Source: Balanoglossus misakiensis
Lineage: Eukaryota > Animalia > Hemichordata
Assembly (NCBI GenBank): GCA_040954595.2
Contig: CM082576.2
Coordinates: 17,903,028-17,967,027, forward strand
Length of the DNA: 64,000 nucleotides
Direction of reading: 5' to 3'
The notes beneath the pieces were generated by a model. The model was not told where the DNA came from. It was given only the letters and a program-made list of their open reading frames with translations, and did no database searches. Below, one piece after another: positions 15,095 through 64,000 of this stretch. A program made the translations under genes and the position numbers. Within the stretch, counting starts at the first letter, position 1, and every line of letters starts with the position of its first letter.

Positions 15095-15325
15095 TTATGT
15101 ATGTATGCAATTATGTGTGTTTGTGTATGTATCTTTGTTCTCTACAAAAAACTTTAAATATGTGTAAGATCTGTATTTGGTATAGAGGTGCATTATCACT
15201 TATCAGGTATATTTTACTTTCCAGTTCCAGGCTTTTTGGTGGTGGGTGCTGGTCATTGTTGTGTCACTTGCAGTGATGTGTTGTGTTTTTGTAAGTATGC
15301 ACATTAAATGTATGTATATATGTAC

Positions 15326-18702: not shown

Positions 18703-18895
18703 TTAATATGAGTGCATATGCAAGTTTTAACCAGATAAATAATAAAGCTTTGCCGCAAGCGAATATGGCCGCCACCATGGGAAAATGCAAGAAACAATGA
18801 AAATGTTGCATTTCCGATTGTGAAACTTCATAAACAAAACATGATCTCATCTACTTGAGCTCATGGACGTAAATGTACACCGCTGTGACATTATA

Positions 18896-20169
18896 TTTGG
18901 GGGCACAAGCGCCCTCAGGCGGCTTGTGCCCCCATTGTTATTGTTGGAATTTTTCTTTATTATTATTCTTCTTCTTCTTCTTCCGAGAAATTCGGCCAGG
19001 TAGATCTGGGAAACCGCTGCACCTAGGGGGCTGAAACTTGGTAGGGTGGTAGGGGCCAATGAGTAGACGTGCAGTGGCTCGTGAATATTTAATTAGTCAC
19101 GTGACCTGGCGGCCATATTGGATTTCCTGAAAATCGTTAAACGAGTCCTTCTCAAAAGCTGCTGGGCCGATCGAGTTCAAATTTGGTGTGCAGGTAGCCT
19201 ACCTTCTGTCCATCATTTTACCCCTTGAAATCATGACGTCACACATAAAGTTTTTTTGCTACAATTGTTTTTCTGAAAAACTACTTAAAACTTTAAAAAT
19301 CTTCTTCTCCAGAACCAGCGGTTACCGAGTCTTGGGATTTGGGATATGTGGTCACCTAACCTATGTCTATCAAGTTTGCGAAGCGCACTGTGATTGGTCG
19401 ATCATTATGGCGGCCATGTTGGATATTCGGAAAACCATTGAAAAGTAATAATTCTGTTTTGTAGCCAAAATGTTGACAGCATGGAAATTCTTTTTTTGGA
19501 TATGAGTCATCATATGACCGGAAGTTGTCACAATTTTTCGGGGCAATTTTCACATGACCTTTGACCCATTTTAAACAACTAATTATATATGCATAATCCC
19601 CATACCTCCTCTTGTCAAAGCACCACAGTCATGAATTTTGTGGACATGGGTACCAATGCTGCCAGGACATGGCACAAATATTTTGGTAATTTTGGCAATG
19701 ACCCTTGACCTATTTCTGAAACATCATTTTTCTGCATATCTAAATCCATGCTACCCAATAGGGCTAGAGGTCTGGTATTGGTTGGACATGGCCCACTCTG
19801 GGGTCAAAATTTTATGCCCTAATTTTGGGTGACCTTGGGTGACCTTTGATCTACTTTCCCATATCTCAGCATCCAGAGCAGTTAGAGCCCTGGCTTTTAT
19901 GGGGATCGAGCACATAATGGAGTCCTACACAAGACCTCATTAATTATGTGCATACCTAATTGCAGGCGAACCAATAAGGCTAGGGGTCTGGTTTTTTGTT
20001 GGATCTAGACTAGTATGGGGTCCAATTTTTTTGCCCAAATTTGGGGTGACCTCAGGTGACCTTTGACCTACTTTCCCATATCTTGGTATCCCCAGCAGAT
20101 ACAGCCGTGGCATTTGCTGGTCACCATGGGAACCGCTTGTGCCCCGCCAACGCTGCTTGCAGCTTTAAT
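18896..20169 (+). mobile_element. Non-autonomous Helentron-like (HINE/DINE-type) element
   Basis: 5' hairpin GGGGCACAAGCG...CGGCTTGTGCCCC, (TTA/CTT)n tract, 3' subterminal GCTTGTGCCCC followed by short hairpin GCTGCTTGCAGC and T-rich end; no TSD. Confidence 0.75.
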
Positions 20170-20393
20170 TTCCTTTTTCATTGTAAAATTGCACTTTTTT
20201 AAAAATTGCAGGAATTTTCGTTTTTTTCTTTAATTTTTGGCCATTTTGTCATAAATAAGTGTTGAGCTTGATATATCATCATGAAATATAATTTAATAGA
20301 CATAATTAAAAGTATATATGAGATTATTTAAAACTGTAATTTTTTATTCAGTTGCAGCTCATGTACCTTTAATAAGGAGCAATAACAACCAAA

Positions 20394-21869
20394 AATTAAA
20401 GCTGCGAGCAGCATTGTCGGGCCCAAGCGCTGATCTTGAATTATATATGCACAGTATGAATGAGAAGAAACAGAATTTTCTATTGGATGTATTATCTTAT
20501 GACATAACAAGGATGTGTGTATTTTTGCCGCTGAAATAGGGTGAAGTAGGTCAAAGGTCACCTGAAGTCACCCGACATTTGGGCAATTTTTTTGACCCAT
20601 ACTGGTCCATGTCCAACAAAAACCAAAACTCTAGCTCTATTGGTTCGCCTGTAATTAGGTATGTGCATATTTAATGAGGTCAGCAGGTGTCACAGGTGAC
20701 CCAAAAATGTGGCTTTAGATTTTGGTCCCATCCTACCAAATGCCATGGTTGTATCTGCTCTGGATGCTGAGATATGCGAAAGTAGGTCAAAGGTCACCAG
20801 GGGTCACCCAACATTTGGGCAAAAAATTTTGATCCTATACTGGTCCATGTCCAACAAAAACCAAACCCCTAGCTCTATTGGTTCGCCTGTAATTAGCTAT
20901 GCGCATAATTAATGAGGTCAGCAGAGGTCAAAGGGGTCATGAAAAGTAGCAAAATATTTTGATCACACACTAATCCACATTCATCAAAAACCAAACGTCT
21001 AGCCCTATAGGTTAGCCTGGAATTAGATATGCAGAAATAATAACGCGTGATAAGTAGGTCAAAGGTCATGTGAAAAATCGCCAAAAAATTGTAACATATT
21101 TTAGTCACATGACGATTGATATCCATAAAAAGAATTTGTATGCTATCAATTTTTGGACTAGAAAAAGGAATTTCAATTTTTCACTGCTTTTTACAAAATC
21201 CAATATGGCCGCCATAATCTTCGACCAATCACAATGCTCTTTGCAAACTTGATAGACATCAGTGTAGTGACCATACTCCCCGAATCTTGCGACTTAGTCA
21301 TCGTCGGTTCTGGAGAAGAAGATTTTTGGAGTTTAACTATGGTTTTTCGAAAATCCAATATGGCCGCCATAATCTTCGACCAATCACAATGATCTTCGCA
21401 AACTTGATAGACATCAGTTAGGTGACCACATACCCCAAACCACGTGTCTTGGTTATCACCGGTTCTGGAGAAGAAGATTTTTGAAATTTAAGCCAGATTT
21501 CTGAAAAAAAATTGTAGCAAAAAAACTGCAACATTGACAGCAAAATTTCCAATTACAAAAATGATGGGTAGAAGGTAGTCTACCTGCATGCCAAATTTGA
21601 AGTCGATCTGACTTGTAGTTTCTGAGATCTGAGATTTGATTTTTTTCAGAAAATCCTATATGGCCGCCAGGTCATGTGACTAATTAATTATTCACAAGTC
21701 ACTGCACATCTACTCATTGACCTTGACCACTGTAGCAAGTTTGAGAAGTGTACCTGAAGTAGTTTCAGAGATCTCGTTGGCCGAAGAATTGACACAAGAA
21801 TAAAGAAAGAAAGAAAAATTCCAACGAAACCAATAGGGCCCAAGCGCTTGCTTGCGCTTGGGCCCTAAA
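20394..21869 (-). mobile_element. Helentron-like element, same family, reverse orientation
   Basis: Begins AATTAAAGCTGCGAGCAGC...GGGCCCAAGCGC, ends TAGGGCCCAAGCGC...GCGCTTGGGCCCTAA; internal tandem subunits. Confidence 0.75.
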
Positions 21870-23390
21870 TATAGCTGCAAGCAGCAATAGCGGGCCCAAG
21901 CCAACATAGCACATAGCAACATAGCAATAAGCATATTTGCTCTGGATGCCAAGATATGAAAAAGTAGGTCAAAGGTCACCTGAGGTCACCCAAATTTTTG
22001 GCAAAAATTTTTGACCCCATACTGGTCCATGTCCTACAAGAACAAAACCTCTAGCCCTTTTAGTTAGCCCGGAATTAGGTATGCACATAATTAATGAGAT
22101 AGCAGGTGTCACAGGTGACCCCCAATTTGGCTTTTCAATTTTAGTCTCAACCCTCCAAACGCCAAGTCTGTACCTGCTCTGGATGCCGAGATATAGGAAA
22201 GTAGGTCAAAGTTCACCTGAGGTCACCCAAAATTTTGGGCAAATTTTGTTGACCCTATACTGGCCCATGTCCCACAAGAACGAAACCTCCAGCCCTATAA
22301 GTTAGCCCACAATTAGGTATGCACATAATTAATGAGATATGCAGGTGTCACAGGTTACCCCCATTTTGGCTTTTCAATTTTAATCCCAACCCTCCAAACG
22401 CCAAGTCTGTACCTGCTCTGGATGCCGAGATATAGTAAAGTAGGTCAAAGGTCACCTGAGGTCACCCAAAATTTGGGCAAGAAATTTTGACCCTATACTG
22501 GTCCATGTCTCACATAAACGAAACCTCTAGCCCTCTTAGTTAGCCAAGAATTAGATATGCACATAATTAATGAGTTAAGCAGGTGTTACAGGTGAGCCTA
22601 AAATGTTGCCTTCTATTTTGGTGCCATTGTGCTCACTGACCACAAGACAGTCACTGTACAGGACTATTGCACAGACCAGAATTCCACAATAAGACATGGA
22701 CATAGCTTAACCATAGAGGTATAATTAAAGGTATAAATTTCATAAAAAAATTAATATAAAAAAATCGGTCGATTTTTCATACTATTTTTTTTTCGCTTAA
22801 AATTATTGACAAATGCTAGGCTGGCTGCACACCAAAGTTGGAGATGATTGGCCAAACAGATTTTGAGATATGTATGCATATTTATCCAAAATAATATGTG
22901 GTCTTAGCTTTACTATGGAAAGTATAGGCCCATGGCTTGGTCAAAAAATATGAAAATTAATACTTAAAAATCTTCTTCTCAAAATTGGCATGGCCAATGT
23001 CCTTGACATTTGGCATGTAGGACACTGACCACATGGTCCGCAAAAGTTGCTAAAAGAATTTTGATATCTCCATTCATATGCAAATAAGGCCGATTTGAAC
23101 GTTTTGCCCATATATGGTAATCAGGTCACGTGACTAATTAAACATTCACGAGGGTACTGCACTAGCTCTCATAGGCCTGCACCACTGTGCCAAGTTTGAG
23201 ATTTGTAGGTTCAGCCGTTTTCAAGATCAAAGTGGCCGATAAAACTGCACAAGAAAAAAAATCAGTAGAAGAAAAAAGCCAACAATACCAATAGGGCACA
23301 AGCGCCTGAGGGCGCTTGTGCCCTAAAAAGTAGAAGAAAAACCAGGACAATACCAATAGGGCCCAAGCGCTGCATGCGCTTGGGCCCTAA
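21870..23390 (-). mobile_element. Helentron-like element head-to-tail with the previous one; doubled terminal hairpin
   Basis: Begins ATAGCTGCAAGCAGC...GGGCCCAAGC; ~238-bp internal repeats (AGTAGGTCAAAG at ~21963, 22200, 22439); hairpins at 23292-23325 and 23357-23389. Confidence 0.75.
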
Positions 23391-25478: not shown

Positions 25479-26865
25479 TCTCAAACGGTCACAATTTAGC
25501 CAAATTCGTTAAAAAAATGAATAAACGACTCTGGAACTGTAGTCTAGGCACGTTGTAGTCTCGCGCCATTGGATAATATTTAGAGCGCATTTGCAAAAGA
25601 ACGCTTTGTCAACCAATCAGTGCTAGCGTCAGATTCAGCTTTCGATTCAGTGAAAGTGTGGGATCAATTTGTTCTCACACTCCCAGTGTGAAACAGTGTG
25701 TGTAGTGAGAGGTAGTCTGTACAGTGTTGTTAGACCATCGTGTAGAATGTGGAGAGACAGTAAAGAGGCCAAGACATGGGGCCAAAGTAAAATGATGTTA
25801 GATCCCACCAGGACAATATTAAAGAATAATACTTAATTGTTGGATTTCAGTGATTTACTGTGCATTTTATTTTATTCTGAGAGCCTGTTAAATACTCAGA
25901 ATATATTGTGCAAACACCAACTGATATATAATGGCCTGGTTTTTTTGCTGGGGAAATACAGTATTGAATTCAGTTACAAGTACAGTACATGTATCAGAGA
26001 TATTTCTGGTAAAAAGCAAAACAATTATCTCGCACTGTCTGCATCTGTGCAAATATGCCAGAGAACTGGTTTTACCTTCGGCCTAAAAACATTTAAAAAA
26101 ATTTCTTCGCTCGCTGCTCCTGGAACTAGGTCAAAACAATCCAATGAACAAGATTGTTCTCTCTGGCCTAATATCAATATAACTGTTTGCTGCTCCATTT
26201 TATGTAGATGGGAATTTATATGGGGTTTGTAAAGTTTCTTCAAACATTCAGAGTATGCCAGTTCACATAGATGAAAACATCTAAGTCAACGCACAACATT
26301 TAAAGTTGTGCAAAAACTAACCAACACTCGAGCCCAAATTCCCAGAACATCAAACTGTGACAAGTTTTTCTGGTGATGATATGAAATTAAACAACTGTCT
26401 AGTTCCGTGAAAATGGTCATGATAATTGACACTTATTGCATAACTTCAGATGACTATATGAAATTGGAAAAGATGGTCATTTCCACAGAATCCGTGATTA
26501 CTCATTCTGTCTATTTCTAGGATGTTATTGGTCATTACTGCAAATTTCCGCTCATTACTGCTCGTTACAAGTTTAACAAGCACCCAACAAAACACCCAGA
26601 AGTCATTTAGAATGGCACAAAATAACAAGTCCATAAAAACTGAGCATGATTCATTGTCGATGTAGACTGCATATAGTACTACTTGATGGATTTTTTGCAT
26701 TACCTGGCATGTGTACTGCAAAGACAATGCCTGGAGTTATAGAGGGTGTTTGATCACAGAAGCTGTCTTTTGTGTCACATGCAGTCAAATTACTCCTCAT
26801 TGTCACCACGACCCTCAGCTCATCATTTATACTTTTCCTGTACGGCATCTGTTTTCTTTTTTCAG

Positions 26866-26908
26866 ATACGAGAAACTAGATGCTGGTTTGCAGGATGGAG
26901 AACATTGA
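26866..26908 (+). CDS. Host gene terminal coding exon (RYEKLDAGLQDGEH-stop)
   Basis: Strong acceptor TTTTCTTTTTTCAG|; phase 2 continues the exon ending at 17125; TGA at 26906-26908. Confidence 0.7.
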
Positions 26909-27583
26909 TCCGTATGCCACCTGGCAGATTGAAGTCCGACTACCAATAGTACCATGCAGAAACTAGATGCTGGTTTGCAGGATGGAGAACATTGATCCGT
27001 ATGCCACCTGGCAGATTGAAGTCCGACTACCAATAGTACCATGCAGAAACTAGATGCTGGTTTGCAGGATGGAGAACATTGATCCGTATGCCACCTGGCA
27101 GATTCAAGTCCGACTACCAATAGTACCATGCAGAAACTAGATGCTGGTTTGCAGGATGGAGAACATTGATCCGTATGCCACCTGGCAGATTGAAGTCCTA
27201 CTACCAATAGTACCATGCAGAAACTAGATGCTGGTTTGCAGGATGGAGAACATTGATCCGTATGCCACCTGGCAGATTGAAGTCCTACTACCAATAGTAC
27301 CATGCAGAAACTAGATGCTGGTTTGCAGGATGGAGAACATTGATCTGTGTGCCACCTGGCAGATTGAAGTCCTACTACCAATAGTACCATGCAGAAACTA
27401 GATGCTGGTTTGCAGGATGGAGAACACTGATCTGTGTGCCAACTGGCAGATTGAAGTCCGACTACCAATAGTACCATGCAGAAACTAGATGCTGTGTTGA
27501 AAGATGGCGGAGATTGATCTGTATGCCACCATAGCAGAGGAATGCTGCAAGATGATTTGGACCAGAAGTCCAACTACCATGCA
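26871..27583. repeat. 87-bp tandem array, ~8 copies, overlapping the stop codon and 3' UTR
   Basis: AGAAACTAGATGCTG recurs at 26871, 26958, 27045, 27132, 27219, 27306, 27393 and 27480. Confidence 0.97.
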
Positions 27584-27898
27584 GTCTCCATGATGACTCA
27601 TCTGTCAACAGAGGTCCGTAGACGCATGGACTCCCAGCTTGCAGTGCTTACGGTAGTTTTGGGGGCATCCCTGCCATGCATTTTTATATATTTGTGTAAA
27701 TTTAGTTAATTTTGGTGTACACATCTGTATTTGGACGGTTTATTTATATAGGTATATTAAGTTATTTTGTTAGTTGTTACTTGTAGTTATAGTTAGTTAT
27801 AATATAGTATAGTTATAGGGTATTTATGTTTGTTTGTTTGTTTGTGTGTGTGGTGTAAGTGTGTGTGTCATTCAAAGTGTAGGGTACCTGTTTATTAT

Positions 27899-36860: not shown

Positions 36861-36865
36861 GTTTA

Positions 36866-38404
36866 CTGGTCCTGGGCCGCTGTTAATTTTATAAGCCTGT
36901 GCAGACGCGCAGACACATGGCATGACCTCCAACAAAAGTTGCTTCATCTTTTGTCATGTTTAGCTGAGTTGTTACAATGCGCGCCCGCGCTCAGAGTGTT
37001 GCTTGTGTTACAAGGCTATTGATGCTACTTATAGGACGCCTGTCTAAAGAAAATTTGTGCACTGAATGAAATGGCAGCGCACTGCTCTTGACAGCGTGCA
37101 CAGCTGCGTTGCTTCTAGGGTGATTCAAGCCGTGGACGGTGTGAAATCACTCAGTTGTGTTCACTAAATTATCAAAAATTGAAAGGGAGTAGTAAGTTAC
37201 AGTGAAAGCAAAGGTGGATGCAGAGCAAAAGTATGGGAGGTGACAATCTGTCATATTGTTGTTCACTCAGTAAGAATGTGTCACAGTGACCCATGAAGAT
37301 TTATTTTGTTGTGACAATCCAATATTTATTGCATCAAATGTCGCAAGGCCGCACGCAAGCTGAAACACTGTATATTGTTTTATTTCTGTAATTTGTGATT
37401 TTAGATAGTATTAGTGTTTAAAACACAGAGAGAGCACCTATTTAGGATTCTTAGCCACCCATTTGTTTTTCCAACTGATTATCTGAAATTTTACAAAGCA
37501 AAGCGGATAGTTCTGATAGACAGACAAAAACTACTTGTATGATAAAATTATACTGTTACCAAGTGAAGGAATGTCTTGCTTGTGTCTAGAAATCACAAAT
37601 TATCACAGTCTACTGGTTAGGACCTTGCAGGCCTACAGATATTCGGATGACTGCTTTCAGGACAGTTACACTTGAACATTGCAGCCTTCTACTGCAATTG
37701 CACCTTAATCTTTAACCCCAATCTAACCACTAACATTAACCTCTAACCTCTAACCACTAACCTAAATAGCAGGCAGGAATGTCCACGTTTTCTGTCCTTG
37801 AAGTTGATACCCTCTGAATATTTGGCAAAAGTCAGATTGTCTTGACACTTAAACAAAAGTGCCAATGTTGTATGACTGCCTACCAAATATGCTCTCTCTT
37901 TCAGTGTTTCAGCTAGCGTGCGGCCTTGTGACATTTGACGCAATAAATGTTGGATTGTCGCAACGGAATAATCTTCATGGGTCACTGTGATGCATTCTTC
38001 CTGAGTGAGCAACAATGTGACTGATTGTCACCCCTATACTTTTGCTTTGCGTCTAACTTTGCTTTCACTGTAACTTACTACTCCCTTTCAATTTTTGATA
38101 ATTTAGTGAACACAACTGAGTGATTTCACACCTTCCACGGCTTGAATCACCCAAGAAGCATTGCAGCTCTGCACGCTGTCAAGAGCAGTGTGCTGCCATT
38201 TTATTCAGTGAACAAGTTATCTTTAGACAGGCGTCCTATAAATAGCATCAATAGCCTAGTAACACAAGGAATGCACTGAGCTCGTGCGAGCATTGTAACA
38301 ACTCAGCTAAACATGACAAAAGATGAAGCAACTTTTGTTGGAGGTCATGTCATGTGTCTGCGCGTCTGCACAGGCTTATAAAATTAACAGCGGCCTAGGG
38401 CCGG
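36866..38404. mobile_element. Long-TIR non-autonomous element (~500-bp arms), TA-flanked
   Basis: 36866-37370 is an inverted copy of 37902-38404; ends TA|CTGGTCCTGGGCCGCTG ... CAGCGGCCTAGGGCCGG|TA. Confidence 0.85.
37639..37821. repeat. Small insert with degenerate (CTAACC)n telomere-like tract
   Basis: CTAACC-like units at 37712-37765; short inverted ends ATATTCGGA / TCTGAATAT. Confidence 0.5.
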
Positions 38405-39330
38405 TAATAATTGCGAAGGGAAGATAAATTTCATTGCCACCTGCCCTGATTTATGCCTACTTGATAAGGTAAACTTTTAATTACTTTGCACTATTTGATT
38501 TTGTTTAGAATAGGGTGGGGTATGATTGCAAAAAAATTATTATCAAAGTAATTAATCTGATCCTGAATGTTGATCTTTCCCCCCCCAAAAAAAACACAAC
38601 AACAATACACAATAGCATTTCTTCACCAATGGCAGTTATCATAATTAACACAAAATCTGAGATGTCTTGTCTTAGGATATGTTCAATTTCTAAAAATTAC
38701 ATAATGTACATTGTAGTAGGATGTAAAAGACAACCGGCACTGAAAACTTGTGAACTTGGCATGGACAGGCAGTGTTTCATCCAGGACACAGGTGAATTAG
38801 GCGTTCTGTTCGGGGAAACAAACAATCAAATAAATAAACAAACAAACAAACAAAAAAGAAACAACAACCACCATCATGATAAACAACGCAGTGTCTTGAA
38901 TTGAACCACCCATTCGCGCGATCGAGCAGCTGACACAAGAAGTGGCTTGTGTCAAAGGTCCCGTCCGTATGCCAGTAAATTGTCATATAGTGGGAAGGTG
39001 TCCAACTCCCACTTGAAAACTGCTCGACACTGTTGAATATTTGCAATTTTTTAGCCTCTAAATGTCTGACATCTATAAAATTTCTACCCCATTTTAAAAC
39101 ATCAATAAACAGGCTATCATATCAGCATCCATTTATCAGTCTCTTTTACTACTGGTTGTTGCTAGCGCGTAAAAAATATGACAACATCACAGTTTTTGAG
39201 GGGCATAGCAAGTTGTGGGAACATCAGGGTGTTTTATTGTAGCGGACTTCGTAACCCCAGGTCAATTTCAAATACTTTCACTAGTAATAGTATTTCACTA
39301 GGCCTACTTTACACTGGATATAAAAACGAC

Positions 39331-41195: not shown

Positions 41196-41630
41196 GACTA
41201 GAATACTGGCGTAGCTTGTTCACTCGATTGCTGCAATACAATATATGGATCGGAAATCAAGCAAGTTTTTCATGTAACTTTTGTTTCATAACCAAAAAAA
41301 AAACTACATTTTGTCTTTCAAGTGCAACCTCCAATGAAAAGTTACAATGAATCGGTAGCAGATCATGCAAATGCCTGTTGATCTCCGACCTATTTGAAAC
41401 TCAAGTAAAATGTGTGGACACAAGATTTTGAAGTCCCTGATAAGAAATGTTTACCCACTTATGATAATAAAAAAAAGGAGCGCCCTAACCATGGCACATG
41501 AGAACATGTCTTAAAATTTTTCTCGGGGTGCCTCAAGTAAATTAGATTTTGAAATGTCCTCTGAAATGCCCCAACCAGTCTTGGCCCAAACTGCCCCCAC
41601 CCCTCCTCAGTAATACCCATTTTGATACAC

Positions 41631-41631
41631 C

Positions 41632-41719
<88 letters not shown>

Positions 41720-41957
41720 CGTCCGTCCGTCCGTCCGTCCGTCCGTCCGTCCGTCCGTCCGTCCGTCCGTCCGTCCGTCCGTCCGTCCGAGCGAGCGAGC
41801 GAGCGAGCGAGTGAGTGAGTGAGCGAGTGAGTGAGTGAGTGAGTGAGTGAGTGAGTGTACACATGTATTTGTCCAAACTTTTGAATAGTTTAGTTAGTTA
41901 GTTAGTATATAGTTAGTTAGTTAGTAAGTAAATTAGTTAGTTAGTTAGTTAGTTAGT
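41631..41957. repeat. Compound microsatellite (CTGT)n(CCGT)n(GAGC)n(GAGT)n followed by (TTAG)n
   Basis: Directly visible; explains the low-complexity ORFs at 41542-41876. Confidence 0.97.
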
Positions 41958-50308: not shown

Positions 50309-51575
50309 AATAATAATAATAATTTATTTATATAGCGTCAGTATCCACAAAAATGTGATCAATGACGCTTAAAGCAAAAATACAATACAACAAATGGCTA
50401 AAAAACAGATTTAAAGAGTAAAGTTTTAACATTTGATTTAAAAACAGAGAAGTCTGGTGCCTGGTGAATGGTGAGTGGAAGATTATTCCAAAGAATTGGA
50501 GCAGCAACAGTAAAACCCCGTTACCATAACTCCTGGTGCGTGATCGAACAGGACAGAGTTTGAACTGATCAGCTGACCTTAAATTGCGACACGGAACATA
50601 CAGATCAGTCATGTTAGAAAGATAGATTGGACCAAGTTTATGAATGGATTTAAAAATGAGAACTAACATCTTAAAAACAATACGCTCTGTAACAGATAGC
50701 CAGTGCAACTGATACAAAATCGGAGTGATGTGACAGGTGATTTTTGAACGAGTAACAATTCTAGCAGCAATATTCTGAACGCGTTGAATACGGTTGATTG
50801 AATACTTCGGGAGCCCAAATAAAAGTGAATTACATGAATCAATTCGAGAAGTAATGAATGCATGAACTAATTGCTCTGTAGCAGATTGAGATAAATATTT
50901 GCAATAAGTGCAATGCGACGTAAATGAAAAGTGGCAGAGCGGCAGATCTGTCCAATATGTGGCTTCATTGTCAGACAAGAGTAAAGGATCACTCCAAGGC
51001 TCTTAGCCTGACAATGGACGGGAATCAGAGAATCGCCAACACAAATTTCTGAAATCCCTCTAGCAGACAGATCACCCGAAGTACCAGAGAAAATAACAAA
51101 TTCAGTCTTATCATCGTTTAAGCACAAGAAGTTTTCAGACATCCAAAACCTAACATCGGATATACAAAGTTCAAGATTTGAAACAGTTCTTGCTGTGTTG
51201 TCTTTACAAAAAGACATATAAAGGGAAGAGTCATCTGCATAAAAACTATAAAGACAACCATGACTTTGAACTAATTCACCTAATGGAGACATGTACATAT
51301 TGAAAAGTATGGGACCAAGAACTGATCCATGTGGTACCCCAGTGTCGAGCGGATAGAAAGGTGATTGGGTGGAATTTACAAGTATGCACTGACTACGATT
51401 GGAAAGGTATGACTTAAACCACATGGGAACAGGATCTGAGAGACTAAAGCGGTCTCTTAAGCGATTGAGTAAAATGGTATGGTTCACAGTGTCAAATGCT
51501 GCGGAAAGATCGAGTAATACCAGGAAAACCTCTCGTTTTTCATCAAGAGCAAGCAAAATGTCAGAAGAAAGAGTG
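50309..51575 (-). mobile_element. 5'-truncated L2/CR1-group LINE (RT domain and C-terminus)
   Basis: LVLLDLSAAFDTVNH, GVPHGSVLGPILF, YADDS, LCLNDDKTE, LVHAFITSRIDSCNSLL and HITPILYQLHWL; frameshift near 50900; (TTA)n tail at 50309-50323. Confidence 0.95.
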
Positions 51576-54004
51576 AAACTCCAAAGGTTTAAATTTTCTG
51601 ATGCCTCTAAGTCTGTGATGAGTCTATTTTGAATGAAAGACCAAAACATGTTCGTCTTCTTATTTGTCGTCGCTACTTTAATTCTTATTTACTTTAAATT
51701 TATGTTGATACAGAGATTTGTTGCAAACAACATTCTCCAGAAATCTTTGAATGCATCCCATTCTTATCAATTTTAATCTTTAAAAAGTTATACAAATCGA
51801 GTTGATATACCAGTAATAGCAATTACCCCCCCCCCCCCCCATATTGGCTTTGAAACCGGGAGTGTATCTCCGCTCCTGACTAAGTTTCGGGGGCAGGGTA
51901 AAACCATACTTACCCCCCCCCCCACCATGCACAAAATCCCCCCTTACCCCCCCCCCCCCACCCCCGCCAATGATCATATTTTACACCAATAGGGATATGG
52001 ATTTAAAGAATGGCGCAATCACTGTGAATAACTGAAGTATAAAAATCAAAGATAACAGAAGCGCACATTTTGTTGTTTATGGAACATACAGTGTAATTGG
52101 CTGGGAGGCTTCATGAATCAATAATTGGACGCCAATCAAACTAATCTTTAACGAAAGTCGCTGATCGAAGAAAGTACATTTGTAGCAATGTGTGTGACAT
52201 GAATACAGTTGAATTCAATTTTTGGAACAATACTCAGAAAATTGTCAATCATAACAGATACTGGAGCTTTTACAATAATATTTGTTCACTTTATTTCTTG
52301 CTATTTCTCCCTTTTTATTATTTGCATTTAATCAGTAATCAATTTATTCAGCTATTTATTTTTATCATAAAACAATTGTGTCCAGAAAATATGTAACTTT
52401 GTCCCCGTACAAGAAATTGCTTCCTGCACCCCTGAAAAAGTGAAAATGTGCAAATCTAAGCAACAAAATATCATTAAGGAAATTCAACTTTTTGGTGCAT
52501 TTAATCTCTTTTATTTAGTACTGTCTTTATGAAATTACATTCTCTAGTGAGAGCAGCGCAGAGACACAGGAGAACAGAACTTTTGTCTCTCTTTTCGAGC
52601 GTCCACATCGCTTCATATATTGCTGTGGCGTTAAAGTCGGCTGTTACAATAACATTGATTGTGTAACAACGAACTACAAATTCTCACCAATATTCATAAG
52701 CTTTTCCATGCCATCGTCAATGAAAACGGCACTGGCATTCTGATTTGTAGATCATACGGCGGAGTTGGTATTCCCTGGAGAAAGTCGCTGTCGAGAATAG
52801 CCGATCTTGGTATTGGGAACATAGTCGAATAATGGATTTTGATAACAGCGGTATGCCATCGAAGCCTGCTCTGTAGAAATATGTTTTGTCGGGACTGCAA
52901 AATCTGCCCGACACAAGTCCGACATTTGGCCGTCGTGCATTACCATGATAAACGTGACAAGGCAAAGTTGTGAAAAACCGACTTTGTCATCTCAAAAAAC
53001 CCTGCCGGTGTACATGATGCAGAATTCCGGCATGCCAGTCGAAACTTTCCCGGTACCTTTTTGTTGATGGCGAATACCGTTTGCCACACGAAATTTCGAC
53101 GTGTCATTTGTGAAGTCACAACAGACCTGGCTGTATGATGCGACAATCTACGACAAGAATCACGTGGTTCTCAGTTGCATTTAAATTTTTATTCGTAATC
53201 TGCTCTTTAAAAACTGTATATCATGTTCTGACAGACTTCACCTTTACCAGAAAATGCATTTAGTTAAATCGTATAGATTTTCGAAGTTCTAAGTATCAAT
53301 CACAATTTCGGAAAAAAATGCATGGTTGTCTCTATACATGGTTTCTATATATCTACCCAGTGCCCGTCAGTAGCCTAAACCACTTAACTGTGCAACCCGG
53401 TCGGGCATTTTTTTTCTATCAAACACAAACAAAAATCTATTCATGGATGCGTCAATGAAGCACGCCAAAACAGGATCCCAACCAATCACAACGATGTACT
53501 ATTTCTGGCCATGTTACACCGATGTTTTTACGTGATATGGCGGCAGATGTATGACCTGTCATACTGTCCCTACGTTCCAACAAGTCAGCTACTGACCGGA
53601 AAATTAATTTTTTGGTGAAAAAACATTTTATTGTTTATATTGTTTAACGTTAAAATTTTACTCTGTCTCTGGGCATGCAAGCCTTACCCTATGTGCAGCG
53701 CAATATATTATTAGCATTCTTGTCGCACATCACCAATCAAGTAGGCCTAGGTTGGCATTATATGCAATAATTGAAGCATTGGTGGCCTAGTTGGGTGGGT
53801 AGATGGTGGGCCATCCAGCCACCCAACCAGCCCAACAAGGCTACAATTATTGCAGCTAGGCAGGCATGGAATGTAAGGCTAATTGAATTCAATTACTCAG
53901 AATGACTATCCTCGAATCGTATAGCACAACGCAATTCGCTGATCGCGGTTTCGGCGGTCAAATCATAGAAAGCTCGTACAGCAATTTTGTAACCAATCCA
54001 ATAA

Positions 54005-54846
54005 GGGACCGTTCAGTTTTTACGGCTGGGGGGGGGGGGGGGGGTTGGCAAGTTTGTGTCATCGGTTTTCAAAAATCAGGCCAACCCCCCCCCCCTTCTC
54101 CCAGGACCAAAAAAACGACGACCCCCCCCCCCCCTTGACAGGCCTAACAATATGATGACCCCCCCCCCTCTCCGAAAACATTCGCCGTCATGATCCTATG
54201 TACACTGTATGCAATAAAGGGAATGAGGCTCCTCAACACGTCAATTATAATTTTCTTAAAGTAATTGAAGTATATAATAGTATATCGTTGCAATAAAGAA
54301 ATCTATGAATAAATTAAAATGACAAGTCAATACAATAGTTGGTAGGATTGGTAAAACAAGAAAAGTGTCGGGGTTGGGCGTGGGAGGGGGTGTCCCCCTC
54401 CCACATAAGAAAATTATGTAAAATACGGTGCTCAAAGTTGCATTTTAATGAACTCAAAAGCAAATTAACTCAATGTTAGGGAGGAAATTTTTTTTAATTT
54501 TGCCACTCCACTCAAAGTAAGCATCGGGGATGGGGTGGCAAGAAGCCTGCCCTGGTACACTAGACAAACCAGCGAATAAATGCAATGTGGTGAAGAATGG
54601 AGGGGGTGTCCCCCTCCCACATAATAATTTTTTTTGTAAAATACGGTGATCAAAGTTGCATTTTAACGAACTCAAAGGCATATTAACTCAATGTTGGCGA
54701 GGACAAATTTTAATGTTGACACTCCACTCAAAGTAAGCATCGGTGGGGTGGGGTGGCAAGTAGTCTGCCCTGGTACACTAGACAAACCAGCCAATAAATG
54801 AAATGTGGCGAAGAATGAAGGGGGTGGGTTCGGGAGGGGGTGTCCC
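54005..54846. mobile_element. Harbinger MITE copy 3, right end missing
   Basis: TAA|GGGACCGTTCAGTTTTTACGGC; colinear with copy 1; internal ~220-bp unit repeated (GAGGGGG(G)TGTCCCC at ~54384, 54600, 54834). Confidence 0.88.
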
Positions 54847-55271
54847 CAATCTGATTAAAATCAGATGTAGGGAACGGCGACGTGGTTTTTTTTATGCTGT
54901 CGCCTCACACTACATCTGACCAACTCTCACTGGAGCTCCCGTTGAAATCGACGGGATTTACTGGGCGAATAAACCAATCAGAAGGCGCCTTATAGCAAAC
55001 GATAGGCATCCCACAATCACATGACCTAGCCCCTTGGGTTGTTACCATGGAGCCACCACAATCTGATTAAAATCAGATGTAGGGAACGGCGACTTGTTTT
55101 TTTATGCTGTCGCCTCACACTACATCTGACCAACTCTCAATGGAGATCCCGCTGAACTCTACGAGATTTACTGGGAATATAAACCAATCAGAAGGCGCCT
55201 TATAGCAAATGATAGGCAACCCACAATCACATGACCTGGCCCCTTGCGGTTGTTACCATGGAGCTACCACA
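54847..55271. repeat. Two tandem 212-bp units
   Basis: CAATCTGATTAAAATCAGATGTAGGGAACGGCGAC at 54847 and 55059. Confidence 0.93.
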
Positions 55272-55519
55272 GACATATATCCCGGGCGCGAGAGTCGAAT
55301 CAGCGTGGGGAATGGTTTCGAGCCAGTTCAGCGTGACGACTGAACCTCTATATTCCACCGGTCAACGAAATGTATAAGACGTGACAACAAGTCGCAGTAA
55401 AATTGTTAGACAATCGATTAAATTTGTGTAAGGCCGTCCCAGGGAGAGATTCTGTCGCCACGATCGTTTGTATACACCAGCAGAGTGTACCGACCGACTG
55501 CACAGTGCACTGACTTGAC

Positions 55520-55762
55520 TAGCTCTGCGTGCAGGTCTGTGTGTTCCCGGCGTTACATGGACGTTAGAAGAAGTTAAACGCATCATATTTGGGGTCGGTT
55601 GAAGTAGTAAGGGAAAGGATTTTACTTCGATAAAAACGAATTTCGACAGAAAAAGCTGCGGTCGGGCGTCCGGGTCCGGACCGCAGGCGCACCAGTTTTG
55701 TCTATGGGGCCTTATGCAGGGCTGTGGTGCGTCGGGAACACACAGACCTGAACGCGGAGCTA
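55520..55762. mobile_element. MITE with 9-bp TSD (Mutator/MULE-like)
   Basis: TGACTTGAC|TAGCTCTGCGTGCAGGTCTGTGTGTTCCCG ... CGGGAACACACAGACCTGAACGCGGAGCTA|TGACTTGAC. Confidence 0.88.
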
Positions 55763-56264
55763 TGACTTGACATTCCTTAGCTGAAGTTAGTGTTCTTTTT
55801 AAAAATCTGTCACATAAATTGTTTTGGGATACATGGCAGTGAAATTTGGTTTATTTTTTATAAACTTTTACATGAAGTACGTCATTTTCCCCGACTGGCA
55901 GCATGACTACGAGGGCGAACATGACGACTTGTTAGGAGAGCGCCAGGCTTATAAATTCCGGCAAACATTATTTGGGCGATACCATTTTGTGGTAGGTATC
56001 ACTACACGCCAGTCATGCAAACATGCACTGACTGGCCTTCGGATTACTACTACGGTCTCACTTGTTGCAAAAATCGAACGGTTTTAGCCGGTAAACACAG
56101 ATGGATTAACTCTTAAATCTATCCTGCGCCCAAACGCGCTCCAGTCGGTTTAGTCATTGTTTATGCAAAAGGAAATGCAAAATGTAGCAGAAGCTTCATA
56201 TAACATAATATAGAATACACAAACAGACAGACAAATAAACAAGCAAACAAACAAACAAAAGTTA

Positions 56265-56520
56265 GGGACTGTTCAGATTTAACTTCCAGGGTGGGGCCGG
56301 AGGATTTTTTATTTTCCTGGTGATTGTTTTTTCCATGGACGTACCCCAGTAAATTGTGGAGGAAATCTGTTGTACCCCTTAAATTTCCTGGGGTTTTTCC
56401 ATGGTCCCCCCAAAAGGATTGTGATTTTTATGTCTATTCCTCCCTAAATTGTTCTTGGAGAAAATGGGCGGTCCCTCCTGAAAATCCTCCGCCCCCCGGA
56501 AGTAAATCCCGAACAGTCCC
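56265..56520. mobile_element. Harbinger-type MITE, second family
   Basis: TTA|GGGACTGTTCAGATTTAACTTCC ... GGAAGTAAATCCCGAACAGTCCC; right TSD not preserved. Confidence 0.75.
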
Positions 56521-57587
56521 AGCTAGCACCCTTGCTTCACTGCCAGAGGAGCGACAGCATCAACAAAATGCAGATACACAAGAAATAAGCAGTATATTCC
56601 ACAAGTGAAGAATCCCAGTTACAGACGTTACGAACAAACAAACTACCAACAACAAAGCTGGTCTCTGTTACCCATTCGCCTTTGCAAAGGCATCTGGGTA
56701 ACCAAGACTACAACAAAGCAAGAAAAGGGTCAAGCGTCGTCAAAGAAAACGTAAAAAATCCAGCATGGGTGGTAAAAGTTATTGGTATAAAACGAATAGG
56801 GCCTTCTAGAAATGACGTCTCAGACCCGCAAATGCCACCAGAACACAAAACGTATGTACAGTATAAGCCGGTTGTTGTATGGAGCAGCAATAATCTGCGG
56901 TTGGGCCGTCGTAGATTTTCGTTGGTGGTGAAAATAAAATAAAAAACGCGATCAAGGCTCAATTTTATTCCGGATCACATGCGGTTACGGCCAGAAGAGA
57001 GCATCAAAGTCTTCAAATGACCATGTGGTGGCGCACTTTTTTCGATTGGCTGTATTTCAATTTGTCCGTGGTAAATTTAATTTTTGCAGGTGACTGGCAC
57101 GGAAACTCTTAGCAAGGTTGAGGTAGGATGAAAAAATGCCCCATTGACTCATTTTGGCTATTTTAAAATATGCAGTTTCATGGGGATGGACTACTCGACT
57201 ATCCCAGAGGGGTCTGGAAAATTGAGACTAGGGTGGACTTTTTACCAGGTGTCTCCGTAAAATAGACTTTTATTTCATATCCCAAAAATGAGGTGGTGTT
57301 CTCACCTGCTTTTCCCCCGACGATTTTTTCATGTCTTCTTGAGATCAAAACACTACATGAAACACTACATATACATTTTGTGAGTTGTCTTTTTTCGTTT
57401 TATGTTGGCATTAATTCAATCAGAATTTTTAATTCCTGTATTGTAAAAAGCTTGGGTTTTATGTTTCAGTTGCAGAGTGCTTAAATTTGGACAATATGCT
57501 CGACTTGCGTGGCAATTCTGCAAATATATTTGAATTATTCTTTGGGATCCCCATCTATATTGTTTAATGCAATGAGTTGCGACCGTC

Positions 57588-59228
57588 ATTGGTTTGGACA
57601 TGAGTTTGTTGTTTGCTGTTTGGTTGGTCATGGAGCAACAGTCATGGAGCAACACGTAACATTGCCTGGGGTGTTCAATTCTGTAAATGGCATGAGATAG
57701 TTGCATGTACCCGAGTCTAGTGAAACATCGTTTTTGGCGATGTGGATTTCATTATTGCGTGACTGTGCGGTGGGTCTCGATTCGTTCCTGTCAGACAGCC
57801 CAACAAGGACATACGCTTGACGTGCCTTAAAGGTATACGGTAACCTATGCAAATTTAGCTACAGTTACCATGGCAAATTGAGATACAGCCAATCACAAAT
57901 ATTCAGGAGGTGGCACACGCGACAATAAGAGCGCCACCATTTGTTCTTTAGAACACTAGGATACGCAAGTTTAGCCATTTATGGACATATGCAAATTGGA
58001 GGGGATCGTGTATTAAGTTGTAGACTTTGTCCGACATCGTCCGGTCATCACGGCTGAAATACTCCCATTGCGCATTGCTTATAGATATTTTAGGTCGACC
58101 CCGGTGTAGTCTACTCCAATAGAAATGAAGAAAGTAAATATAAGATTACCGCCCGAAGTCTCAAACGTGAAAGCTATTTCAGTGGCACTACAGTGGATAA
58201 ACATTTAATCCGTGTATACTTCATGAAACTGAATCAGATAACTTTTATTCAAACCAAATAAATGAAACATATGAAGAGAGGCCTATCTTGATTAAACACA
58301 TAAATCTGATATTTTATCATATTAGGTAACTCAATATTTTACACTTGACGTATTTTACCAATAACACAATGTTTCAGCGAACCCGTCAGAAGCAACTTTA
58401 GCAGAATACATTTCCTTGATTTACGTTACATGGTTTAATTCGAGAGACATTTCTCAATAAAATCAAAAGTCACAGTTCATATTTTTTATAGAAACGGTCC
58501 AATTTGTCGAGTGCGCACTGACAAGACATGCATCGTGCATAGACCACTACGCGGATAGGGTATCTGCAATGCATGATGGTATAATTTGCGTTCAACATAG
58601 CGTCTACTGCATGGCTAACGCACGCGCTCAGAACGCAAACTATCCCACAACACCCTGTGTTATGCTATCCGCGAAGTGGTCCATGGCAGTGACAACAATT
58701 CCTATAGAGCAGTTAAGAAATAAACCGGCCGGCCGTAAATTCATTGGCTGTATTTTTTGTATTTATTTGATTTGAAAGGTCGCGTTTTCCCTGTTGCATG
58801 CGATTAGTTCAGGGCCAGTTTCAGCAGTGCTCTATTGAGTACTTTCGTATCGATGGATTGAGCTCTCGTCCAATCAGAATGGCGGATGGTAGCATGATCT
58901 GACATATTGCGTATTGCAATAGGCCTTCCCCAGATAGGTCAGAACGGAGAGGTCATTCCCCTGAGCTTCTTTGTCTTTTCTATTATTTTTTGACAAATGC
59001 GGATTGACGTTCCGTTTCTACATGGCCATGACTGATATTTATTTACGTTTCATAGCGTAAGCGCTTGCTATTCGTTTCGTAATTGTTTTCGTAGTACAAA
59101 CAAATTGAAGAAGACGAAATATATTATCTATGTCCCTAATGAGATAATCGGGGTTACATAATCGCACTTCCAAAGAACGCCGTGACAGAATTCATCAGTT
59201 GGCGAGGCGCATTCTCCACCCGCACACA
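57588..59228. repeat. First unit of a probable ~1.64-kb tandem duplication
   Basis: 57588-58372 matches 59229-59283 plus 63276-64000, with a few substitutions and one 5-bp indel; the second unit runs off the window. Confidence 0.9.
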
Positions 59229-59319
59229 ATTGGTTTGGACATGAGTTTGTTGTTTGCTGTTTGGTTGGTCATGGAGCAACAGTAGTAGTATAGGTTGGAG
59301 CCGTAGCACTCGGATTTGG

Positions 59320-59530
59320 GGAGGAGGAGCTGAGGAGGAGCTGAGGAGGAGGAGCTGAGGAGGAGGCGGAGGAGCTGAGGAGGAGCTGAGGAGGAGCTGA
59401 GGAGGAGGAGCTGAGGAGGAGGCGGAGGAGGAGGAGGCGGAGGAGGAGGAGGAGGAGGAGGAAGAGGAGGAGGAGCTGAGGAGGAGCTGAGGAGGAAGAG
59501 GAGGAGGAGGAGCTGAGGAGGAGGAGGAGG
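59320..59530. repeat. Purine-rich GAG / CTGAGGAGGAG array in the left arm (mirror ~63001-63233)
   Basis: Directly visible; source of the poly-S/P/L ORFs. Confidence 0.95.
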
Positions 59531-59920
59531 CAGACATGGTCCCCTAAGTTGGTGGAAAATTGAGATATGGCTAAGTATATATGGAACGTGCTTTGATTGG
59601 TGGACTTTCTGCAAAGCATGATGTTGGGAGGAGGCAGAGGAGGCAGTGGAGGTGATGAGAGGCGAAGGAGGCCTATCACCCATGAGGTAGACAACCCTAA
59701 ATGTTGGGAGGAGGCAGAGGAGGCGATGAGAGGCGGAGGTGTATCACCCCCTAAGGTAAGGAACCCTAAATGTTGGGAGGAGGCGGAGGCAGGTATTTCC
59801 GGCTGGTCCGATCTCTTCATTTGTATACCATACCATGATTATCGAAGTGCGCCATCTACCGATTGATACCATTTATTCTTTCGGTACACTATTTCACGAC
59901 ATTGTATTCTGTTGACTACA

Positions 59921-61219
59921 ATGAGCTGGGACAGTTCTCCCGAGTTTTCGGCCAGTCAGTGGCAGGAAATTTTAAGTCTTGAGCGTGGGAATGCGAGGGA
60001 AGAAACCGAACATAGCCAGGTAAGTTTTTCATGTAAAATAAATGTTATCGTAGTCACTCGATCGCGCACAGTGTAATTCGCGCCCTGTGTATGGAACTGT
60101 CGTCTGCGTCATGTCCGAATTGACATTGACGTGGATTTCTCCACCAAAATACGCCAATGAATTGAAATCATAAACTAAAATATGTTAGAAATTTTAAATT
60201 AAATTTACGGGTGTAAATTAAATTGGTATAAACATGTTAAAAAACAGCTCCTGTATGAAAGGTGGATATTTCACTGTATGTTGTCGATTGATATGCCGGC
60301 CGGGGTCGTACATACAGTACACAGGTAAAGCACATAGTGTCGCTCTGTTCAACACACTCTGGCATCGAAATATGTTCGATTCAGGTTTACAAAATCTCCG
60401 ACTCATCGTTAATGAAAGGTTTAATAACCCAATGTGTTTGTATATTCTTATTAAATGCTAGATCAATGTCAACATTCAAAAAAAAAAAAAAAAATTTGCC
60501 TCAAAACGATCGTGGGTGAACATCCGCGCACTACTCGTAGTGTCGCTGGGCCAGTATACACGGCACTGTTACGCACGGATTCCAATTAACACGCCTTTGT
60601 TATTTAAATCAGCACATCGTCACAATGTTACTATATTGTTCCCCATTCATTCCTCATGTAGGACACTCACGTGTATGACGCGTGCCTGTTTGCCAGATGG
60701 GTTAAATTTCATCACACATTAGCAGTTAAAAGTGAGATGTTTTCTGTACTTGATGGTCGTGTTTAACCTTATACACACGTATGCGTTTCCTTGTAATAGG
60801 ATCAGCATGAACTCGCTGCAGGGAGTGAGTCACAGCATCACAATTTGATTGCACCGCATCCAAACGTAATCGGGTAAGTTTTACCTTTCTTTCTTTCTTT
60901 CTTTCTTTAGAACAATTAATTTAATAGAAACGAAGAATATTTGTACTTTTTTTTCTTCTTATCTATCATTTTCGTTTAATAGGGACACCGGGGAAGAAGA
61001 AATGGAAAGACAGGATACGGGTGCCTCATCATCCCCGCATCCAAACGTAATCGGGTAAGTTTTACCTTTCTTTCTTTAGAACAATTAATTTAATAGAAAC
61101 GAAGAATATTTGTACTTTTTTCTTCTTCTTATCTATCATTTTCGTTTAATAGGGACACCGGGGAAGAAGAAATGGAAAGACAGGATACGGGTGCCTCATC
61201 ATCCAAGAGATATAGGTAA
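59921..61219 (+). CDS. Predicted 4-exon ORF, ~103 aa, acidic/Ser-rich (exons 59921-60019, 60800-60873, 60983-61054, 61153-61219)
   Basis: ATG 59921; donors CAG|GTAAGT and CGG|GTAAGT (twice); acceptors TTTCCTTGTAATAG| and TTTTCGTTTAATAG| (twice); all phases compatible; TAA at 61217-61219. Confidence 0.6.
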
Positions 61220-61310
61220 AATGATTATTATTGAACTTCACCGCCCTTACAATGTATGAATGTATGTACATGCATGCATGTATGATGATACAGTTATGTT
61301 TGTAATCATT

Positions 61311-62610
61311 TTACCTATATCTCTTGGATGATGAGGCACCCGTATCCTGTCTTTCCATTTCTTCTTCCCCGGTGTCCCTATTAAACGAAAATGATAGATA
61401 AGAAGAAGAAAAAAGTACAAATATTCTTCGTTTCTATTAAATTAATTGTTCTAAAGAAAGAAAGGTAAAACTTACCCGATTACGTTTGGATGCGGGGATG
61501 ATGAGGCACCCGTATCCTGTCTTTCCATTTCTTCTTCCCCGGTGTCCCTATTAAACGAAAATGATAGATAAGAAGAAAAAAAAGTACAAATATTCTTCGT
61601 TTCTATTAAATTAATTGTTCTAAAGAAAGAAAGAAAGAAAGAAAGGTAAAACTTACCCGATTACGTTTGGATGCGGTGCAATCAAATTGTGATGCTGTGA
61701 CTCACTCCCTGCAGCGAGTTCATGCTGATCCTATTACAAGGAAACGCATACGTGTGTATAAGGTTAAACACGACCATCAAGTACAGAAAACATCTCACTT
61801 TTAACTGCTAATGTGTGATGAAATTTAACCCATCTGGCAAACAGGCACGCGTCATACACGTGAGTGTCCTACATGAGGAATGAATGGGGAACAATATAGT
61901 AACATTGTGACGATGTGCTGATTTAAATAACAAAGGCGTGTTAATTGGAATCCGTGCGTAACAGTGCCGTGTATACTGGCCCAGCGACACTACGAGTAGT
62001 GCGCGGATGTTCACCCACGATCGTTTTGAGGCAAATTTTTTTTTTTTTTTTTTGAATGTTGACATTGATCTAGCATTTAATAAGAATATACAAACACATT
62101 GGGTTATTAAACCTTTCATTAACGATGAGTCGGAGATTTTGTAAACCTGAATCGAACATATTTCGATGCCAGAGTGTGTTGAACAGAGCGACACTATGTG
62201 CTTTACCTGTGTACTGTATGTACGACCCCGGCCGGCATATCAATCGACAACATACAGTGAAATATCCACCTTTCATACAGGAGCTGTTTTTTAACATGTT
62301 TATACCAATTTAATTTACACCCGTAAATTTAATTTAAAATTTCTAACATATTTTAGTTTATGATTTCAATTCATTGGCGTATTTTGGTGGAGAAATCCAC
62401 GTCAATGTCAATTCGGACATGACGCAGACGACAGTTCCATACACAGGGCGCGAATTACACTGTGCGCGATCGAGTGACTACGATAACATTTATTTTACAT
62501 GAAAAACTTACCTGGCTATGTTCGGTTTCTTCCCTCGCATTCCCACGCTCAAGACTTAAAATTTCCTGCCACTGACTGGCCGAAAACTCGGGAGAACTGT
62601 CCCAGCTCAT
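61311..62610 (-). CDS. Mirror copy of the 4-exon ORF in the right arm (exons 62610-62512, 61730-61657, 61547-61476, 61377-61311)
   Basis: Reverse complement of the left-arm model. Confidence 0.6.
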
Positions 62611-64000
62611 TGTAGTCAACAGAATACAATGTCGTGAAATAGTGTACCGAAAGAATAAATGGTATCAATCGGTAGATGGCGCACTTCGATAATCATGGTA
62701 TGGTATACAAATGAAGAGATCGGACCAGCCGGAAATACCTGCCTCCGCCTCCTCCCAACATTTAGGGTTCCTTACCTTAGGGGGTGATACACCTCCGCCT
62801 CTCATCGCCTCCTCTGCCTCCTCCCAACATTTAGGGTTGTCTACCTCATGGGTGATAGGCCTCCTTCGCCTCTCATCACCTCCACTGCCTCCTCTGCCTC
62901 CTCCCAACATCATGCTTTGCAGAAAGTCCACCAATCAAAGCACGTTCCATATATACTTAGCCATATCTCAATTTTCCACCAACTTAGGGGACCATGTCTG
63001 CCTCCTCCTCCTCCTCAGCTCCTCCTCCTCCTCTTCCTCCTCAGCTCCTCCTCAGCTCCTCCTCCTCTTCCTCCTCCTCCTCCTCCTCCTCCGCCTCCTC
63101 CTCCTCCGCCTCCTCCTCAGCTCCTCCTCCTCAGCTCCTCCTCAGCTCCTCCTCAGCTCCTCCTCAGCTCCTCCGCCTCCTCCTCAGCTCCTCCTCCTCA
63201 GCTCCTCCTCAGCTCCTCCTCAGCTCCTCCTCCCCAAATCCGAGTGCTACGGCTCCAACCTATACTACTAACAGTCATGGAGCAACACGTAACATTGCCT
63301 GGGGTGTTCAATTCTGTAAATGCCATTAGATAGTTGCATGTACCCGAGTCTAGTGAAACATCGTTTTTGGCGATGTGGATTTCATTATTGCGTGACTGTG
63401 GGTCTCGATTCGTTCCTGTCAGACAGCCCAACAAGGACATACGCTTGACGTGCCTTAAAGGTATACGGTAACCTATGCAAATTTAGCTACTGTTACCATG
63501 GCAAATTGAGATACAGCCAATCACAGATATTCAGGAGGTGGCACACGCGACAATAAGAGCGCCACCATTTGTTCTTTAGAACACTAGGATACGCAAGTTT
63601 AGCCATTTATGGACATATGCAAATTGGAGGGGATCGTGTATTAAGTTGTAGACTTTGTCCGACATCGTCCGGTCATCACGGCTGAAATACTCCCTTTGCG
63701 CATTGCTTATAGATATTTTAGGTCGACCCCGGTGTAGTCTACTCCAATAGAAATGAAGAAAGTAAATATAAGATTACCGCCCGAAGTCTCAAACGTGAAA
63801 GCCATTTCAGTGGCACTACAGTGGATAAACATTTAATCCGTGTATACTTCATGAAACTGAATCAGATAACTTTTATTCATACAAAATAAATGAAACATAT
63901 GAAGAGAGGCCTATCTTGATTAAACACATAAATCTGATATTTTATCATATTAGGTAACTCAATATTTTACACTTGACGTATTTTACCAATAACACAATGT

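Follow-up and report, generated by a model that had tools for sequence, protein, structure and literature searches.

Mavericks, also termed Polintons, are most commonly recognized in vertebrates by (AGT)2//(ACT)2 ends together with 6-bp target-site duplications, and according to PMC8097293 the intact vertebrate elements span 12.7-24.6 kb with terminal repeats of 46-1447 bp, while in nematode Mavericks the stretch from the left repeat to the integrase gene is described as containing cargo genes with introns (bioRxiv 2022.07.12.499685). In maize, the MULE derivative Mu killer, which silences MuDR, consists of two copies of one transposon end arranged head to head, each with the 5' part (1.3 kb) of the adjacent spliced gene mudrA; a hairpin of ~4 kb was proposed for it, and PMC3440606 links silencing to short antisense transcripts, contesting a hairpin model based on read-through. 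A comparable organization occurs in the 5' snap-back genomes of adeno-associated virus (AAV), which are packaged single-stranded DNA parvovirus genomes in which one genome end, with its promoter and part of the first gene, is copied back and for which double-stranded RNA (dsRNA) formation has been proposed (PMC8235507). In addition, non-autonomous "2RT" copies of Galileo, a P-superfamily transposon with 7-bp duplications, have diverged inverted repeats of up to about 1.26 kb that recruited one-sided internal sequence (PMC3573991). Here, a 64,000-nucleotide (nt) stretch of the genome of the hemichordate Balanoglossus misakiensis (contig CM082576.2 of assembly GCA_040954595.2, positions 17,903,028 to 17,967,027), referred to below as the window, was analyzed for a 3986-bp insert at 59284-63269 that begins with AGTAGT, ends with ACTACT, and is palindromic over 98% of its length. 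The palindromic insertion is genuine, and contigs from public sequencing runs revealed that, rather than being a typical member, it is a rare form derived from a longer family, the folded form being at most a minority.

In layout, the insert is closest to Mu killer and the AAV 5' snap-back genomes. As in Mu killer, one element end with a partial gene is present as an inverted duplication, and the partial gene likewise measures 1.3 kb from its ATG, whereas the insert is Maverick-ended and any silencing by it is a prediction. Unlike the AAV molecules, it is chromosomal and bears an integrase-type footprint. With Mavericks it shares the (AGT)2//(ACT)2 ends, the 6-bp duplication, and long terminal inverted repeats, but it is only 4 kb long, is nearly all palindrome, has no core gene, and contains predicted introns, and its 1.9-kb arms are longer than the terminal repeats of the intact vertebrate elements. 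In the nematode cargo region, too, a gene with introns lies immediately internal to one terminal repeat, whereas the predicted gene of the insert is truncated, inverted-duplicated, and without a family match. The recruitment of one-sided internal sequence into inverted repeats recalls Galileo, which differs in its superfamily, duplication length, and arm divergence. No publication on palindromic non-autonomous Polintons or Mavericks was found by title and the start of the abstract, a search that does not establish absence from print, as Kapitonov and Jurka 2006 and Repbase may describe such elements.

Alignment of the insert with itself reproduced the palindrome that a sequence-only reading of this DNA had proposed, including the arm lengths, the 75-bp spacer, the AGTAGT/ACTACT ends, and the AACAGT flanks (Table 1). 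Aligned with the reverse-complemented right arm, the left arm was identical in 1944 of 1944 columns, with 0 substitutions and three indels; the extra bases, all on the right side, are two 11-bp units of the GAG array and one A in a poly-A run. Both array differences fell within the outermost 100 bp, and further inward the arms differed over 1850 bp by the one A only. The arm matches of the insert were the two longest among the 198 inverted pairs of the window, far above chance expectation. Moreover, the observed/expected ratio of CpG was 1.00 in the arm, indicating no depletion, versus 0.64 in the remaining window. None of the 19 open reading frames (ORFs) of the insert matched a Pfam family above the cut-off, and no Rfam match was obtained across 55000-64000. 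The earlier statement that pPolB, integrase, ATPase, and capsid sequences are missing therefore holds at the sensitivity of that search.

The target site is preserved in unoccupied form within a duplicate of the host sequence. The left flank (59229-59283) was identical to 57588-57642 in 55 of 55 positions, the right flank (63270-64000) matched 57637-58372 at 98.2%, and AACAGT occurred only once in the duplicate, 1.6 kb upstream of the insert. The flanks thus rebuild the empty site exactly, pointing to an insertion rather than a simple fold-back read. Such a read would re-enter the left flank in reverse-complemented form, whereas the right flank here truly continues the empty site, making a simple chimera unlikely on the argument of the flanks rather than of a spanning read. 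The empty form was also recovered among contigs of public runs. Three runs, all from one sample, were considered (X1, X2, and X3); X1 and X2 contain the element (0.78 and 0.63 of sampled words), and X3 yielded 0 aligned contigs. Contig depths do not count copies and were compared only as ratios within one run. In X1, the empty-site contig had a depth of 684, and the host sequence itself is a high-depth repeat (600-684). The host sequence is arranged as a tandem duplicate with a spacing of 1641 bp (57588-59228 and 59229-64000), and the tandem junction 59228/59229 was present as an X1 contig at a depth of 245, with both neighbors at 600-684, suggesting that the tandem arrangement itself is multi-copy. 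The target hexamer spans the junction of an older 14-bp tandem duplication in the host repeat (57627-57654), and a parse with a 14-bp target-site duplication was rejected because both 14-mers are already present in the empty site.

Among 28 parses of the insertion boundaries with duplications of 0-6 bp, long perfect ends were obtained in two only, namely, 6-bp AACAGT with AGTAGT ends and 4-bp ACAG with TAGTAGT ends. The second parse would suit a fold-back DDE cut-and-paste transposon of an Academ-like type with TAG...CTA ends, in which the predicted exons would be the start of a transposase. DDE transposons commonly have spliced genes, and Academ elements have TAG ends. In support of such an element, the 4-bp parse also yields perfect ends, and AcademX makes 3-4-bp duplications (PMC10045372). 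Contig starts argue otherwise: whole contigs began exactly at 59284, the A of AGTAGT, in both X1 (59284-59320; depths 742.8 and 410) and X2 (59284-59325; depths 2025 and 1791.7). Depth over the preceding 59276-59283 was 0 in X2 and 376 depth-bases above the empty-site contig in X1, whereas a T fixed before the terminus predicts at least 1153 at 59283 alone; the resulting ratio, 0.33 of the fixed-T minimum, is close to the host T content of 0.30. Some contigs had been removed by a filter, and 16 of 78 pieces were listed. The 4-bp duplication with TAGTAGT ends, which the sequence-only reading had kept as an alternative, was consequently rejected, and its preferred Maverick/Polinton-type ends with a 6-bp duplication gained support from both the empty site and the contig start. 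The terminus evidence for the 6-bp parse is strong but not final, and a DDE transposon is largely refuted and very improbable. Neither the 3-4-bp duplication nor the TAG..CTA ends of the Academ type applies to the insert. IS3EU and GingerRoot elements do make 6-bp duplications, but with TA..TA or TG..CA ends (PMC10045372), whereas the 6-bp parse gives AG..CT here. A second terminus variant with 2 differences was nearly as deep as the first (410 versus 743 in X1 and 1792 versus 2025 in X2), indicating at least two abundant Maverick-ended subfamilies.

Considering the features by which Mavericks are classified, the insert has one of the terminal motifs, (AGT)2 or (AG)3, a 6-bp duplication, seen at one insertion, and inverted repeats, which measure tens to about 1500 bp and here exceed the vertebrate range. 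In its ends and footprint, it thus agrees with a non-autonomous Maverick derivative. Autonomous members encode pPolB, integrase, ATPase, protease, and capsid proteins within 12-25 kb; with 3986 bp and a match in 0 of 19 ORFs, the insert is not an autonomous Maverick.

The contigs further revealed that the arm sequence continues in other copies of the family. Contigs were aligned over 61036-61330, of which 61251-61330, including the fold joint, was masked as repeat. Two contigs, one of 347 nt in X1 (depth 149) and one of 188 nt in X2 (depth 564), started at 61175, crossed the arm boundary 61227/61228 unbroken, matched to 61250, and then ran on for a further 271 and 112 nt, respectively. Logan contigs use each 31-mer once, and the limit for a contig that traces the palindrome without reusing a 31-mer is 61332, so both contigs, extending beyond it, leave the palindrome. 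Their depth was 1.03 (X1) and 1.45 (X2) times that of the unit junction in the arm, not half of it, while the tandem unit itself had 2.06 and 1.95 times the depth of its junction. A common folded form would create a branch at 61227, and none was retained in the contigs of X1 or X2. Together with the depth ratios, this suggests that in most copies the inner arm is followed by the spacer sequence and then by other sequence, and at least 61228-61250 is the family's own sequence adjoining the arm. In addition, the exact terminus was 5.1 (X1) and 5.2 (X2) times deeper than the inner arm, indicating that this end is common to other elements. Where the sequence-only reading had proposed copy-back from one end of a Maverick-like element, the contigs bear out the inverted duplication of a longer member's end; a free snap-back origin and integration in trans go beyond them, as in-place conversion or a centre deletion would yield the same sequence. 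With regard to its analogy with a defective-interfering genome, the contigs point to the folded form as a minority, in an alignment that masked the fold joint.

Each arm contains the 5' part of a predicted spliced gene, whose exons read inward. The model of the sequence-only reading held, with four predicted exons, GT-AG ends at predicted introns of 780, 109, and 98 bp, and one open frame over 308 nt; the arm end truncates it 12 bp into intron 4. Three GTAAGT donors are present, two of them from one duplication. A diverged subfamily was represented by an X1 contig (depth 51). Among its listed differences, intron 3 had 4 substitutions and lacked 3 nt over a span of 56 nt, whereas exon 4 had gained 9 nt between two codons and showed one synonymous change at a third position; these are small numbers, and 4 of the 9 differences of the contig fall outside the listing. 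The likeliest reading is that the predicted gene represents a Maverick cargo gene. Two repeats of 80-100 bp with 79% identity (59621-59789) lie between the GAG array and exon 1 and are possibly promoter or protein-binding repeats.

Searches with the exon-1 protein returned 1 candidate and, among longer proteins, none at an E value of ≤10 (a weak test), while the best value against the ESM Atlas, 0.83, was at chance level. Neither a 21-mer of exon 1 nor the terminus had a match in metagenome contigs. A 19-mer of the terminus had 1 match in viral contigs, which was dismissed as lying within a long phage ORF. A 15-mer had 88 matches there, with 0 at a contig end among the 81 listed, and its best extension (28/31, among 89 loci) belonged to an unrelated repeat-rich stretch.

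Table 1. Features of the palindromic insert and its host sequence (window positions)
Feature	Position	Strand	Basis or remark
Host-repeat duplicate with empty target site 57637-57642	57588-58372	+	780 aligned columns, 8 mismatches
Left target-site duplication, AACAGT	59278-59283	.	single copy at empty site 57637-57642
Left arm, 1944 bp	59284-61227	+	self-alignment
Terminus with (AGT)2 end motif	59284-59320	+	common to other elements at high contig depth
Subterminal GAG-rich array, 11-12-bp units	59321-59530	+	length varies between arms and between family copies
Predicted exon 1, ATG to GTAAGT donor, 33 codons	59921-60019	+	sequence model
Predicted exon 2, 74 nt	60800-60873	+	sequence model
Tandem intron-exon duplication, 170-181-bp units	60854-61034, 61035-61204	+	includes exon 3; unit junction is a contig in X1 and X2
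Predicted exon 3, 72 nt, phase 2-2	60983-61054	+	sequence model
Predicted exon 4, 63 nt	61153-61215	+	sequence model; diverged subfamily keeps frame
Spacer, 75 bp	61228-61302	.	imperfect 14-pair hairpin centred on palindrome axis
Right arm, 1967 bp, inverted copy with the same four predicted exons on the minus strand	61303-63269	-	self-alignment
Right target-site duplication, AACAGT	63270-63275	.	sequence comparison

The best explanation, to which we tentatively give a nearly even chance, is a non-autonomous insertion with Maverick/Polinton ends, in which the first 2 kb of a longer member was folded back and mirror-copied and then integrated by a helper. This explanation draws on the empty site with its 6-bp duplication, the (AGT)2 ends, the high-depth shared terminus, the continuation of the arm past the fold in most copies, and the absence of a core gene. 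The copied segment would comprise the terminus and the 5' exons of the predicted intron-containing cargo gene. A nascent or displaced single strand may have ended near 61302 and folded at the imperfect ATGT/ACAT hairpin on the axis, bringing its 3' end opposite 61227, from which synthesis would have been primed back to the terminus. The product, with two complete ends, would be a substrate for protein-primed replication and for integration in trans, and the integrase of a helper element probably integrated the folded molecule. The event was presumably recent, given that the arms show 0 substitutions against a divergence of ~1% between the two host copies (8 of 780 aligned columns), although conversion could also keep the arms alike.

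The lowest-energy fold of the spacer is the imperfect hairpin, with its loop ≤1 base from the palindrome axis and 20 unpaired bases on each side. Among 1000 shuffles, 13 gave a hairpin equally stable and centred, as did 18 of 787 windows of host sequence, lending weak support to fold-back priming. A perfect 16-bp spacer palindrome (centre 61274.5) was rejected as the fold point, being 9 bp off the axis. Several observations weigh against the fold-back and helper explanation. Stability alone was matched by 264 of 1000 shuffles, pairing of 8 bases or more is possible in nine registers, and the hairpin test was chosen post hoc, after the fold had been seen. There was no microhomology at the testable side of the fold joint, and the two extra 11-bp units of the right arm are unexplained by a single copy-back without later or simultaneous slippage. 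No parent sequence was seen that would show the family to encode pPolB, integrase, or capsid or to be non-palindromic, and a longer palindromic parent would give the same depth ratios as a non-palindromic one. A homologue of the predicted gene was not found in single-exon queries, which are weak tests, or by Pfam on ORFs, and the core genes of intact vertebrate Mavericks are intronless (PMC8097293). On the contig side, the fold joint 61302/61303 lies inside the masked stretch of the alignment, no contig with the left junction of this copy was found among the 16 pieces listed of 78, and the depths, which do not count copies, come from one sample.

The insert might instead be a centre-deleted member of larger palindromic Maverick-ended satellites, with longer arms that each held the whole gene and an asymmetric deletion that left 75 unpaired bases. 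An arm sequence that continues at equal depth is equally expected under such a deletion, the independent array lengths of the two arms would simply be inherited, and the Polintons of butterflies have 2-kb terminal repeats that contain genes (bioRxiv 2025.02.07.637071). A deletion does not require the hairpin on the axis, seen in few shuffles, and the excess depth of the terminus over the inner arm places most termini in other elements, a distribution that a centre deletion could also accommodate; on balance, we consider it unlikely, though a serious contender. The concentration of both array differences near the outer ends of the arms, with a nearly uniform interior, would also fit an extension of the repeats in place, as proposed for the TIR1-F1-F1-TIR2 structure of Galileo (PMC3573991). 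Under this "2RT" type of process, a longer element was inserted first, and break repair from its left end extended the right end inward with loss of the interior, so that the 6-bp duplication and the right terminus would be the original ones. It requires two events or one long conversion tract, however, and given an array that varies among family members, slippage can account for the differences by itself, leaving repeat extension in place distinctly improbable.

An artefact of assembly or library preparation, in which the interior of a real longer insertion was replaced by a fold-back chimeric read, appears more doubtful still. It would account for the fact that neither the fold joint, which was masked, nor the junctions of this copy were seen in the contigs, among which the 16 listed pieces of 78 were available, and that the dominant contigs are unfolded; moreover, there is no record of the library type. 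Against it, the sequence to the right continues the empty site instead of reverting to the left flank in reverse complement, two complete 11-bp units distinguish the arms, and contigs drop rare forms according to the statement of the contig tool.

To our knowledge, the replication and integration of Mavericks have little direct experimental support. If the insert was integrated in its present form, the two copies of one end and the clean 6-bp footprint would imply that either end can serve for the other and that 1.9 kb of end sequence, at most, is sufficient in cis. It would also offer a dated, single-event example of how palindromic Maverick derivatives could begin. By analogy with the systems described above, a transcript of the truncated gene from either arm, having no 3' end of its own, is predicted to run into the antisense arm and form a hairpin RNA of >1 kb, and the layout would thus make dsRNA against its own family, if transcribed. 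Taken further, the insert could be a "Maverick killer," that is, a freshly integrated snap-back Maverick genome in which the cargo promoter drives a hairpin RNA that silences the multi-copy parent and the spacer hairpin records fold-back priming during protein-primed replication, a combination that we regard as doubtful. The Mu killer-like layout predicts small RNAs confined to 59921-61227 in carriers.

Other repeats were distributed across the window, and its predicted introns, LINE-type reverse transcriptase, and satellites would by themselves suggest a eukaryotic, probably animal, host. Inverted organization was also observed in an element with arms of ~500 bp and 91.5% identity (36863-38407), an element with arms of ~400 bp and 83.5% identity (12181-13688), and a satellite of 238-bp units whose inverted arrangement (72-82%) is old (18892-22627). 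A dispersed repeat was present in three copies at 86-89%, one of them inverted (6470-6968, 14462-15098, and 54001-54640). Tandem repeats included an 87-bp minisatellite with 94-100% identity between units (26784-27605), a 127-bp tandem array (1331-2059), and a compound tetranucleotide microsatellite (41623-41861). In addition, a broken LINE-type reverse transcriptase in two frames was located on the minus strand at 50331-51688, with an RVT_1 match at an E value of 3e-22 and the reverse transcriptase at 50870-51688.

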